Notes under the pieces: model-generated
The model's input: the letters and a program-made list of their open reading frames with translations, nothing else
Told to the model about the DNA's origin: nothing
Database searches by the model: none
Source: a virus
Lineage: Duplodnaviria > Caudoviricetes
Virus record (IMG/VR): IMGVR_UViG_3300032327_000479
Coordinates: 1-41,033 of that record
Length of the DNA: 41,033 nt
Strand: one strand, 5' to 3'
Shown: piece by piece, positions 2,195 through 7,926 of the stretch
Numbering within the stretch: the stretch's first letter is position 1
Layout of the letters: each line of letters begins with the position of its first letter
Position numbers and translations under genes: made by a program

Positions 2195-2638
2195 CTATGC
2201 GTTACAAGTACACGTAGCACAATGATTCCTATCCCAAGCTCTTTGAGTGTTAGTAGAGTAATCCACTGCTTCCAAATGCTCTGGATTTACGCATAATTTA
2301 ACGCTGCATAAATGGTCAATTACAAGTCCTTTGGGTATTTCCCCTTTAACAAGCTCGTAAACAACCCTATGAGCAACTGTAGACTTGCCTTTCCATTTTA
2401 TTTGTCCATAACCTGATTTATGAACAGCTCCTGACCAAATATGGCACCCATTATTGTCAAGTGCATGCCTAGTCAATGGGTTCATCGGAATTGGACCTGA
2501 GGGCATTCCGTTAGTAAGGCAGTCAATACAACGAGACCTTCTGCCATCTTTTTTAACCCTATTGTCTGGGTAATAACTCTCAAGTGGCTTATCGATTTTG
2601 CATAAACGACAGAGTCGTGTGTTTGTTTTTATTTTCAT
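2195..2638 (-). CDS. free-standing HNH endonuclease with N-terminal Zn finger
   Basis: CRLC...CIDC, then GCHIWSGA...GYG...AHRVVY...IDHLC...CVNPEHL. Start placed at ATG 2638. Confidence 0.9.
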   Translation of the reverse strand: MKIKTNTRLCRLCKIDKPLESYYPDNRVKKDGRRSRCIDCLTNGMPSGPIPMNPLTRHALDNNGCHIWSGAVHKSGYGQIKWKGKSTVAHRVVYELVKGEIPKGLVIDHLCSVKLCVNPEHLEAVDYSTNTQRAWDRNHCATCTCNA

Positions 2639-2645
2639 ACACACG

Positions 2646-2654
2646 ACTCTATCA
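2646..2654 (-). promoter_or_regulatory. extended -10 (TGnTAGAGT) for a leaderless HNH transcript
   Basis: TAGAGT lies 7 nt upstream of ATG 2638 and no SD is present. Confidence 0.45.
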
Positions 2655-2679
2655 TTTATCGCAAACAATAGTTGTTAAA

Positions 2680-4892: not shown

Positions 4893-6353
4893 TTATCCTT
4901 CTAGCTTTTCTGCAATGATTCTGGTGGTAGTATCCCCGTCAATGATGCGAGTATTTTCTTTTGCGGCATCAACTCTGTCCCCAAAAATTGCGGCTAAAAC
5001 ACCTTGACTGGCATTACGCTGAGCAGTGATTTGGATGAATTCTTTTTGCTCGTCTAACTCTTTCAAACTCTTCAACATTTTAAAATAACGGTCCATCTCT
5101 TGCGATACGTTTGGGTCTGCGTACCCACCGTTCAATTCCTCTGTATACCGCATAAACGCTACTCTTTGGGCTTGCATCTCTACTAATGCAGTGTTCAATG
5201 CCTTCAATTGATCAGGAGTTTTTACCTCGATAGGAAGGTTAAACGCACACGTACTTGTAGGCTTAAATGCAGGGCAATTACTGGCAACAAAACAGGTATC
5301 GCATTGACGTAATGACGTGGTATTAGTCTGAACAACAGGTACTTGTTTTAAAACATCCCTACCATCTTCGTTCTCTACAACTTGCTTTAGCTGATACCCA
5401 AAAACAGGCATTGAAATGACCTCTGAGGGGTCTCTAGGAACGATTTCAACACGTTCTTGTTTCCGTACTTCACTACCACTGTTATTAGAACCAGGTAGCC
5501 CTAAATCCATTAAACCTGTATATAGGGTATCGTCACTGTTATCAGATACTTTATCATTTTTCATTGTTTTCTCTAACTGTAAATATGACCATACTGCAAC
5601 TTTAGTGGCTTCTAAGGTGTCATCATCTATGAACTTTTGAAAATTTAACCCTGATTTTTCTACCATTGTCTTGTACCGAATTCGTGCTTGAGTCTTCATC
5701 TTCTTTGGGTATCGTACTAATTTCATGCCATCCCAGATGATTGTTTCGCCTCGACGCATTGGGGATAACCAGCTGAGTGTCGAGGCTGTAGTAAAAGGTA
5801 TCTGTCTCAAATTGTCTGGTTTGGCCACTGCCAACCCATGAAATGTAGTTTTGTGAACTGCTACCATGTTTCTGGTCACCGCTGCTAACGCAGTGACGGT
5901 CTCTACCATAGTTCCTGGGATAGCAATTTGGTGATACATCGATCCCCAACTTTTTAGGGTAGGGATACCGTACTCTTCATGCCACACTACAATAAGTTTA
6001 GGGTCATTGGTGAACGCTTCTCGTTCTTTAAATACCCATTCTTTGCCCATTACTTGGCTGTCAAATTCTACCCAACCTTCAATTCGGTGGTAGTTATTAA
6101 CGATAAAATCTTCGTAATCTGCTGCGTATTCTTGCAGCTCTTGTTTAGATAAGTTAGCTTTGTCTGCTTGAGTTGCCCCCGCATCAACCCATACTTTCAT
6201 ATCTGGTAGAAAATGTTCCGCAATTAAATACGCTTTGGTTTTAGGCAACCCACGTTTACGCAATCCCCAGTAATTTAGCATCACATTATTGACGCCAGAT
6301 TTTTCTAGTAAAATTCTATTACTAGGTATTTCAACTCCACCAAATACAATCAT
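4893..6353 (-). CDS. divergent TGT/DpdA-like TIM-barrel protein with C-terminal Cys cluster and helical domain
   Basis: Ordered motifs VWVDAGA, EFD, VVWH, FHGLA and IPF..ASTLSW resemble DSGa/D/PVxH/HxLG/SxDSxSW. C-terminal CDTC-x5-C-x8-C. Confidence 0.55.
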   Translation of the reverse strand: MIVFGGVEIPSNRILLEKSGVNNVMLNYWGLRKRGLPKTKAYLIAEHFLPDMKVWVDAGATQADKANLSKQELQEYAADYEDFIVNNYHRIEGWVEFDSQVMGKEWVFKEREAFTNDPKLIVVWHEEYGIPTLKSWGSMYHQIAIPGTMVETVTALAAVTRNMVAVHKTTFHGLAVAKPDNLRQIPFTTASTLSWLSPMRRGETIIWDGMKLVRYPKKMKTQARIRYKTMVEKSGLNFQKFIDDDTLEATKVAVWSYLQLEKTMKNDKVSDNSDDTLYTGLMDLGLPGSNNSGSEVRKQERVEIVPRDPSEVISMPVFGYQLKQVVENEDGRDVLKQVPVVQTNTTSLRQCDTCFVASNCPAFKPTSTCAFNLPIEVKTPDQLKALNTALVEMQAQRVAFMRYTEELNGGYADPNVSQEMDRYFKMLKSLKELDEQKEFIQITAQRNASQGVLAAIFGDRVDAAKENTRIIDGDTTTRIIAEKLEG

Positions 6354-6835
6354 TCGAAGTTTAAAGTTTCAGTACGGATTAACCGCGCATCTTCTGTTCT
6401 CATGGAGTTTTGCTTGTTAATGGCGTTTTCAATATCTCCCCAAGCTCGAACTCTTTTAGGGGCATCGGGGCGAAACTCTGGCCGAGTGTATGTAGGTACC
6501 CCAAACATTACTGATGGAATTCCTAGCTCAAATGCAAATGCCCATAATGAAGGATTATTTGTAATGAACAAGTCTACTGGGCCTTGTGCTCGGGCAACTT
6601 TAATTTGTCTTTCGGCCAATACTTCCCCTGCTAATCCAACAGATGAATCAATAATTCTGTCGTAATCAACAATCTTGTTTAACCCTAACCATTGATTAGT
6701 TTGAGGCTCAGACATCTCAGATAGGAACATCAAACGGTTGTACACGCTTAATGTTCCTATCATGAGAATTCCTGTGGGGATAGGTTCGTCTGACATACCT
6801 TTTAACACACCGTTTAGGTCAACTAATATTTGCAT
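6350..6835 (-). CDS. HAD-superfamily-like protein
   Basis: N-terminal ILVDLNGVL (DxDG variant), FLS motif II and LFITNNP. Confidence 0.55.
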   Translation of the reverse strand: MQILVDLNGVLKGMSDEPIPTGILMIGTLSVYNRLMFLSEMSEPQTNQWLGLNKIVDYDRIIDSSVGLAGEVLAERQIKVARAQGPVDLFITNNPSLWAFAFELGIPSVMFGVPTYTRPEFRPDAPKRVRAWGDIENAINKQNSMRTEDARLIRTETLNFE

Positions 6836-6931
6836 TTATTCCTCGTAGCAATCACATTTACATTTATCTTCTAAACAAATTCCCCGATAAAGCTCATGGC
6901 CACATAAACGGCAGGTGTCAATTAGGGACAT
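6836..6931 (-). CDS. 31-aa Cys-rich peptide (MSLIDTCRLCGHELYRGICLEDKCKCDCYEE)
   Basis: Fills the gap exactly between its neighbours, has an AGGA RBS and six Cys. Confidence 0.6.
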   Translation of the reverse strand: MSLIDTCRLCGHELYRGICLEDKCKCDCYEE

Positions 6932-6934
6932 TTA

Positions 6935-7231
6935 TTAATCCTGTACAGGGGTGCTTTCTGCTTCAGCTTTACGCTTCTGCAATGCTTCGCTAACCTTGTC
7001 TGCAACGGTGTCTTCCTTAGGAGGAGTCAGCATCTGGGCTACTCCTTGTAGGACTTTCGATGCCAACATGTCCCTGTCAAAATCTTCGGTAATTTGACGT
7101 GAGGTTAGGTACACATCATTTACCGTAGCTTTACGCTGAATTTCTGGAAGGGTTTCTGGCAAGTCAGTGTAGCTAACTAGACTTCCGTCTTCTGTGATTA
7201 CGATTAGGTAATACGTTGTTGCTTTTTCCAT
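6935..7231 (-). CDS. hypothetical protein
   Basis: 98-aa ORF in operon context. Confidence 0.75.
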   Translation of the reverse strand: MEKATTYYLIVITEDGSLVSYTDLPETLPEIQRKATVNDVYLTSRQITEDFDRDMLASKVLQGVAQMLTPPKEDTVADKVSEALQKRKAEAESTPVQD

Positions 7232-7245
7232 GTGTTATTGTCTTT

Positions 7246-7347
7246 CTAGTATTTGACTAATCGACGCTTTACGGCATCGAATACTTTAGGATGTTTTTTA
7301 CTTGCTTTACCATTTTTGCGATTTGAATTGGTGCTACCTTTTGCCAT
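7246..7347 (-). CDS. 33-aa highly basic peptide (MAKGSTNSNRKNGKASKKHPKVFDAVKRRLVKY)
   Basis: TAAGGT RBS, fills the intergenic gap. Confidence 0.6.
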   Translation of the reverse strand: MAKGSTNSNRKNGKASKKHPKVFDAVKRRLVKY

Positions 7348-7356
7348 ATTTATACC

Positions 7357-7926
7357 TTAATACATTCCTAGTATTTTACGTTTACGTTGCACAACTTCTC
7401 CGTGATATGGGCAGAAATTGCATACGTAAATCTTTGGACCATCTAGATGCTCAGGTTTAGGTAACCCTAATTCACCTCGTTCTTTTGCCGTATTGGGCAA
7501 TAGCCTCTTAGAAGGTTTTTGGTAATCATCACAATCAGTTTTAGGTCTATTGTGCTTTTCCCAACACGACATTGCATCTTCAGAAAATTGCATTTTAGTT
7601 TCATAAAATGATTTTTGAGGGTCTAGCTCGTCTAGCCCTCTGGACCCACCTCGAGCCAATTGGTCAAGGATTGCTTTACGGTCTTCTGGCTTTACCCATG
7701 ATTTAACTGGTACTTTGAACAGCTTGCCTACGTGAGGGTCTCCTGAAGGAAATACATGCTTCTCAATTGCAATCTGCAATAGGTAATCTTGGTCTGATCT
7801 ACCATCCCAATCAGGGAGTTCTTCCCAGGTTTCACACACCATGCAGCGTAGTAACCGAATAATCGGACCATCGATGGGTTTAGACCCAATTAAAGGTTTG
7901 CCTGAAGGGTCAACTAACCCACTCAT
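7357..7926 (-). CDS. hypothetical protein with Zn-binding motifs
   Basis: CMVC, C..H...C and CNFCPYH. Confidence 0.8.
   Translation of the reverse strand: MSGLVDPSGKPLIGSKPIDGPIIRLLRCMVCETWEELPDWDGRSDQDYLLQIAIEKHVFPSGDPHVGKLFKVPVKSWVKPEDRKAILDQLARGGSRGLDELDPQKSFYETKMQFSEDAMSCWEKHNRPKTDCDDYQKPSKRLLPNTAKERGELGLPKPEHLDGPKIYVCNFCPYHGEVVQRKRKILGMY

Follow-up and report, generated by a model that had tools for sequence, protein, structure and literature searches.

A phage protein joining a DpdA-type barrel that lacks its nucleophile aspartate to a likely small-terminase module

What does a phage do with a protein that has the ordered motifs of the TGT/DpdA family but no aspartate where the nucleophile is expected? 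This question is raised by a 486-aa protein encoded in virus record IMGVR_UViG_3300032327_000479. The window, by which we mean the whole 41,033-nt stretch of DNA that was analysed, covers only part of an approximately 90-kb genome, and is a myovirus-like phage segment with replication and baseplate genes and a B12-type ribonucleotide reductase (RNR) gene just downstream of the 486-aa gene; an HNH endonuclease gene (window 2195-2668) lies just downstream of the RNR gene. A sequence-only reading of the locus had described TGT/DpdA motifs in their usual order, followed by a linker, a CxxC-x5-C-x8-C cluster, and a helical tail. All of these motifs are present in the open reading frame (VDAGA with D57, EFD with D98, VVWH with H125, HGLA with H172, and TASTLSW), and the cysteine cluster (C351-x2-C354-x5-C360-x8-C369) is followed in the AlphaFold2 model by helices at residues 380-407 and 414-435 (Table 1). 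The protein is not a chance reading frame, because residues 1-463 match PHROG 887 (E 2.4e-59) and there are 1653 homologues at E<=0.001. Searches of Pfam, NCBIfam, and PDB sequences gave nothing useful. In GenBank, relatives occur in six BRock-type Streptomyces phage records, in two records of Bacillus phage BCD7, and in Bacteroides phage BS162P1.

Table 1. Features of the 486-aa gene and its surroundings (window positions unless a locus is named).
Feature	Position	Strand	Basis or remark
486-aa gene: Asp-less DpdA barrel and likely small-terminase module	4893..6353	-	ORF, PHROG 887, AlphaFold2, HHalign
TGT/DpdA-type barrel, residues 1-266, pLDDT about 95-98	5556..6353	-	AlphaFold2, Foldseek, structural matches
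D57, acid/base Asp of the DSG motif, equivalent to DpdA Asp95 by motif, kept	6183..6185	-	Alignment
D98, likely base-recognition Asp, equivalent to DpdA Asp130 by motif order, kept	6060..6062	-	Alignment
S191, nucleophile-Asp column, equivalent to DpdA Asp256 by alignment	5781..5783	-	Sequence alignment
Acidic linker, residues 267-300, model confidence mostly low	5454..5555	-	AlphaFold2
Predicted long beta-hairpin region, residues 301-344	5322..5453	-	Model
Cys4 knuckle C351/C354/C360/C369, likely zinc-binding	5247..5303	-	Conserved spacing
Two-helix hairpin, residues 380-435, predicted self-association core	5049..5216	-	Model, four-copy model
Likely stalk strand and conserved G-x-L-x-x-x-F-G, residues 436-458, low model confidence	4980..5048	-	Alignment
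Upstream overlapping 161-aa gene, HAD-like by motif only (DLNG)	6350..6835	-	Conserved neighbour in Asp-less clade
Unannotated 77-94-aa hairpin ORF before terL	L004:24025-24309 (GiJojo); L092:5812-6045		Rival TerS candidate

In the model, a confident barrel is joined to a C-terminal module by a linker that is modelled poorly. TGT and DpdA structures match it at Z scores of 15.1-18.1, with other barrels at 12.9 or less, and the five best matches belong to the TGT family, DpdA included; arcTGT aligns over 259 residues (Z 18.1, rmsd 3.2) and DpdA (7ui4) over 257 (Z 16.5, rmsd 3.4). The top 11 PDB matches in Foldseek are likewise all TGTs. Structure prediction and structural searching, the checks proposed for the fold, thus recover the TGT-like barrel.

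The active site of DpdA consists of Asp95 (acid/base), Phe99, Asp130, His181, and Asp256 (nucleophile), according to the accessible part of PMC10164549. In our protein Ser191 occupies the nucleophile column, which was set by sequence alignment to Asp-bearing relatives and not by superposition on DpdA Asp256; where the protein has TASTLSW, those relatives have GDSTTW (BCD7), VDSTTW/VDSTSW (L238 and L201), and CDSTSW (L193), in agreement with the earlier report of a missing Asp. A residue is present in this column in 144 of 150 representatives and is distributed among Ser (65), Ala (19), Thr (17), Gly (16), and others, with Asp in only one (P0132). By sequence alignment across homologues, a check also proposed earlier, the two catalytic Asp residues are not both present in the 486-aa protein. 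The exception, P0132, is 485 aa long and keeps both of them in a family that otherwise lacks the nucleophile Asp. By its aligned residues, the 486-aa protein departs from DpdA at the nucleophile.

The C-terminal module is, as judged from sequence profiles, homologous through its Cys4 knuckle, helical hairpin, and strand to the product of the gene before terL in Gordonia, Tsukamurella, and Rhodococcus phages. Searching BFVD with the whole model returned the 'terminase small subunit' of Gordonia phage Jumbo (E 1.8e-6), and a weak BFVD lead pointed to Arthrobacter phage Kitkat (E 0.02). With the tail as query, tblastn found TIN2 ORF1 (E 6e-4) and gave weaker matches to many Gordonia ORFs. When the tail is compared with the Gordonia-type profile, HHalign gives a probability of 96.7% (E 4e-10) with identical cysteine spacing, whereas cross-domain controls give 0.3% and 0.1%; the highest of 900 shuffles scores 3.9 bits with the family HMM, compared with 15-17 bits for TIN2, GTE7, and Demosthenes. 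The knuckle cysteines are conserved in 120/120 close proteins and in 144-145 of the 144-147 representatives at each position, and their spacing is the same in GTE7, TIN2, Jumbo, and Trogglehumper. The N-terminal halves of the Gordonia proteins are collinear with the barrel, but weakly so (probability 21%, P 0.001), and in this same weak alignment an Asp of ReqiDocB7 gp001 is placed against S191. Matches of the tail to PHROG TerS families are weak (E 0.05-0.09; PHROG 6902 at E 0.05), and its similarity to a solved TerS, 44RR gp16 (Z 7.3), is tied with dozens of unrelated hairpins. Generic hairpins alone came from a PDB fold search of the tail, and unnamed low-score clusters alone from the ESM Atlas; a stand-alone tail used as query found no longer homologues, which is weak evidence, and neither BCD7 gp21 nor L195 drew any relative other than itself when used as query. 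The earlier suggestion that a dead barrel has been reused is partly supported, although it missed the identity of the tail, whose homology to proteins in the small-terminase position would give the repurposed barrel a specific job.

Modelling of four copies of residues 339-464 yields a score of 0.49 (0.32, 0.74, and 0.49 in separate runs) against 0.00 for three controls, on a scale whose calibration is only rough here, the mark having been reached by 20/30 known homo-pairs and 1/23 monomers. Contact agreement between runs is at least 66%, pLDDT is at least 63, and one copy uses separate faces to contact two neighbours, as would a subunit within a ring. R397-E405 and R422-D421 span the subunit interface in the best run, and all of these residues are invariant in 120/120 close proteins. 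The model supports side-by-side association of the tail as an oligomer, with no function implied by this, and the predicted hairpin resembles the helical-hairpin core of TerS.

Gene position adds a second line of comparison. The Gordonia-type tail family has matches in 117 records and lies directly before terL in 9/9 records examined, and the accessible part of PMC4524720 indicates that these TerS names were assigned mainly by gene position. ReqiDocB7 has the gene split into barrel-like and hairpin genes, and Trogglehumper has only a 199-aa stand-alone tail, which overlaps the terminase gene. Our scan of Asp-bearing barrels covered 80 loci, in 15 of which the barrel is fused to the tail (E<1e-4), in 3 weakly so, and in 3 accompanied by the tail as a separate gene, with 59 lacking a tail; fusions of ~700 aa match both the family and the Gordonia tail profile. 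terL is the next gene in only 3/21 tail-bearing Asp-bearing loci (L201, L195, and L238). The Asp-bearing DpdA-tail fusion of L201 overlaps terL by 44 nt; L238 encodes a 493-aa Asp-bearing fusion with the layout seen in the window, followed after 781 nt by a TerL of the same lineage and then by the portal; and in L195, likewise an Asp-bearing fusion, a hairpin without cysteines ends 11 nt before terL (20.1 bits; highest of 2000 shuffles, 12.1 bits). In L197, terL is preceded by three genes, namely a short DpdA, a second gene, and a separate 226-aa ORF, and BS162P1 and L193 encode barrel and tail as separate halves. Glycosyltransferase- and methyltransferase-like genes, recognised by eye (L201:4338-6004; L238:4370-5194), precede the intact fusions of L201 and L238, hinting at further decoration of the inserted base in these two.

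The Asp-less gene lies ~27 kb from terL in G004, and no tail was found within flanks of up to 3 kb at any of 80 loci picked by TerL, including L278, whose TerL is 61% identical to that of L238. Long matches to the GiJojo TerL occur in 10 GenBank records, which are exactly those with the tail, and among 12 records picked by TerL, 8 have one copy each (all at least 74% complete) and 4 have none (all at most 58% complete), although this co-occurrence could arise from shared ancestry alone. No PHROG TerS family was found among 108 ORFs scanned in the complete genome G004, a set that excluded the long tail genes and some replication genes. In BRock, which has a 221-bp direct terminal repeat (PMC7453282), the gene is ~16 kb from the start of the record, and the packaging site is therefore probably outside the gene. 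A pac site has been mapped in phage 9g, and a copy of a repeat was noted in its tgt gene, with no fusion described in the accessible part of that report (PMC5567051).

We favour the reading, at a probability of about 0.65, that the 486-aa protein is a small terminase (TerS) with a dead DpdA barrel as its DNA-binding domain, descended from active DpdA-TerS fusions. The tail hairpins would pack side by side to form a ring, with the barrels suspended outside it by the linker, in the place that a helix-turn-helix takes in other small terminases; recognition of the packaging site on concatemeric DNA would fall to the barrels, and recruitment of TerL to the ring. In its history, an ancestral DpdA-TerS fusion would have inserted 7-deazaguanine into phage DNA, after which the actinophage branch may have lost the que genes and the nucleophile, the gene being kept because packaging would need it. 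The protein is likely TerS-like in its working rather than a canonical TerS member. Several observations count against a TerS assignment: no helix-turn-helix is seen in the model, which has a TGT barrel as its N-terminal domain; at about three times 15-21 kDa, the protein is much larger than is usual; adjacency to terL is seen in homologues but not in this lineage, where another small hairpin ORF takes the usual slot; and one member of the family, P0132, keeps the Asp. A more tentative extension is that a widespread phage family has built its TerS on a DNA-modifying enzyme, such that intact members insert 7-deazaguanine into the genome at the packaging machine and the dead barrel reads the packaging site by flipping a guanine or modified base. 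The barrel may read modified bases, and these phages are not known to have a source of such a base. If the extension is correct, modification by intact members would be confined to phage DNA, and flipping a base into the old pocket would serve to verify, at the level of that base, the identity of DNA destined for packaging.

Alternatively, the protein could have left packaging to become an oligomeric scaffold that binds DNA and acts together with its conserved neighbours, the real TerS being a helical-hairpin ORF located just upstream of terL in G003-G005 and GiJojo. This ORF adjoins terL in 60/80 TerL loci and is unrelated to the tail (HHalign probability 0.04%), and the distance of the Asp-less gene from terL also suits such an arrangement, as does the retention across most Asp-less loci of its neighbours, namely the HAD-like gene, a nucleotidyltransferase-like gene, and a gene for a 183-189-aa Cys protein. 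However, the hairpin ORF has no clear homologue in the slot before terL in BCD7 (which has a basic 107-aa protein there) or BS162P1 (queD), whereas the tail occurs in all these lineages, and it has neither a PHROG TerS match nor a named ESM Atlas match. Moreover, the window has no tblastn match to the ~293-aa gene that most relatives carry at the position corresponding to 6835-6935, which we call nucleotidyltransferase-like from a motif and not from a family match, and that partner is thus not needed beside the gene. On this balance we regard a scaffold outside packaging as unlikely. The 161-aa HAD-like gene had no match in family searches, and neither did the 189-aa Cys-containing protein (window 7357-7926), a gene found upstream in nearly all Asp-less loci, including GiJojo. 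In BS162P1 (L111:5367-8619), queD overlaps the start of terL and is remote from the other que genes; the TerL of this phage is 907 aa long and contains a putative intein-like insertion.

The sequence-only reading had weighed two options, a new chemistry and a catalytically dead protein put to another use. A new chemistry would involve guanine excision by the retained acid Asp, or Ser191 as the nucleophile, with modification or nicking of the DNA. In the close clade, D57, D98, W124-H125, and H172 are all kept and column 191 is Ser (109) or Thr (11) in all 120 proteins, as would suit an altered active site; CTT/CTC, moreover, is rarer on the coding strand of the gene (13 observed, 38.8 expected), with 0/500 codon-matched simulations as low. 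Against these stand the drift of column 191 across representatives, the retention of D57 in only 85/136 of them and of D57 and D98 together in only 74/134, and the stacking aromatic that follows the DSG motif (DpdA Phe99), which is T61 in the close clade and often lost across representatives. The CTT/CTC dip is also absent from many carriers, and Ala at either Asp of bacterial DpdA abolishes exchange, according to the accessible part of PMC10164549. To judge from the aligned residues, the drift, the D57 loss, and the aromatic loss look like relaxation rather than a new active site. We consider a new chemistry improbable; that option is left without positive support, and the catalytically dead, repurposed protein is the better of the two. 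The CTT/CTC depletion extends over about 4900-7900 of the window on the minus strand and is strongest in the 486-aa gene, with normal counts in the RNR gene; it is deeper in L015, L018, and L021-L023, and absent from L037-L040, L049-L061, and the BRock-like group. We set the dip aside as a packaging signal because many carriers lack it.

A dead barrel could plausibly still bind DNA, by analogy with DpdA, an active-site mutant of which served for DNA-complex work in the accessible part of PMC10164549; residues 196-232 of our protein are basic (10 K/R vs 3 D/E). That the gene is instead a vestige kept for its tail alone, with the barrel idle, we hold to be very improbable: the tail does stand alone before terL in Trogglehumper and the halves are separate in BS162P1 and L193, but barrel conservation is near that of the tail (0.82 vs 0.86), and the two are fused in 151/152 Asp-less loci, the remaining one being cut by a contig end.

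The nucleophile and the preQ0 pathway are absent together. Asp stands at the nucleophile column in 15 of the 167 loci surveyed (164 viral and 3 reference loci); que genes lie beside at least 12 of the Asp-bearing viral loci, and also in BCD7 and BS162P1, and beside 0/151 Asp-less viral loci. QueC and FolE were each found in 0/42 Asp-less genomes of at least 90% completeness, with QueC in 5/5 Asp-bearing control genomes; within the window, the previously noted lack of queC/D/E and folE holds among the 25 larger ORFs scanned. In a tree of 41 hand-picked barrels, which was midpoint-rooted, has unresolved deep forks, and leaves out the Gordonia barrels, the 9 rows without Asp group in a single branch (100/100) surrounded by Asp-bearing ones, which is compatible with a single loss of the Asp. 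One locus (L195:5049-15195) carries in a single operon queE, queD, folE, two PHROG 887 barrels, a phosphoribosyltransferase, a HAD-type protein, queC, and terL.

Hutinet 2019 (PMC6884629, in the part accessible) lists BRock as DpdA-only and BCD7 with FolE, QueD, QueE, and QueC, and proposes that singleton DpdAs may be functionally diverged. DpdA1-4 are defined in PMC10516641, the accessible part of which does not mention these phages; BRock, BCD7, GTE7, and BS162P1 are all absent from one supplement file of that paper. An ordinary DpdA that inserts host-made preQ0 is scarcely credible, in spite of the queuine tRNA-ribosyltransferase or DpdA-like annotations in BRock and GiJojo and the entry as DpdA in the Hutinet 2019 supplementary data (PMC6884629, in the part accessible), given that the nucleophile is absent from 143/144 representatives, that QueC and FolE are absent from 42/42 genomes, and that Orion, a DpdA-only phage, lacks 7-deazaguanine (same source).

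Five known systems resemble the 486-aa protein. Phage DpdA, with BCD7 gp21 and BS162P1_00087 (PHROG 887) as the nearest examples, has the same TGT-type barrel with DSG-type, base-recognition, and HG motifs, and BCD7 gp21 also shares the Cys4-hairpin tail; the 486-aa protein differs from it in having Ser for the nucleophile Asp and no stacking aromatic, and its near-complete relatives differ in lacking que and folE genes. The accessible parts of PMC6884629 and PMC10516641 contain no mention of a tail on DpdA. The long 'terminase small subunit' of Gordonia, Tsukamurella, and Rhodococcus phages (GTE7, TIN2, Jumbo, and ReqiDocB7 gp001+gp002; PHROG 6902 and 16015) has the same knuckle and hairpin, a similar length, and an N-terminal half weakly collinear with the barrel, although these proteins are named by position, have diverged much further in their N-terminal halves, and are encoded right beside terL, and the matches of the GiJojo TerL do not include the TerL of these phages. 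Canonical TerS proteins (SF6, Sf6, P22, 44RR, and PaP3) have the same order of DNA-binding domain, flexible linker, helical-hairpin core, stalk, and tail, from which the 486-aa protein departs in having a 266-residue barrel for the helix-turn-helix, an extra Cys4 knuckle, ~3x the mass, and a gene unlinked from terL; in the accessible part of PMC9611059, the helix-turn-helix is the most conserved TerS feature and protomers are 15-21 kDa. QTRT2 (6fv5), the non-catalytic eukaryotic TGT subunit and presumably the partner of an active tRNA enzyme, is a TGT-fold pseudo-enzyme that matches the model at Z 15.1, but it is not a phage DNA protein and has no Cys4-hairpin tail. The fifth, a protein of the same type, is gp181 of Streptomyces phages BRock and GiJojo, annotated as a 'DpdA-like tRNA-guanine transglycosylase', a full-length homologue (32-33% identity) with the same Asp loss (to Ala or Ser), the same neighbours, and the same TerL lineage; it is probably misannotated as an active enzyme.

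Our searches of the literature, made at listing level and with subscription reviews of DpdA outside their coverage, found no paper on a DpdA-TerS fusion, and this is apparently a widespread architecture of known parts that is undescribed in the literature searched. Cultured phages that grow on harmless hosts, including BRock, GiJojo, and Gordonia terrae phages, are available for testing. If the preferred reading of a small terminase carrying a dead DpdA barrel is correct, an enzyme fold would replace the helix-turn-helix in a small terminase, a large family of actinophages from soil and freshwater, together with their Bacillus and Bacteroides relatives, would have its missing TerS named, and the annotation that counts BRock among DpdA phages would be corrected. 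With the intact fusions, one could test directly how a phage targets a post-replicative modification to its own DNA.
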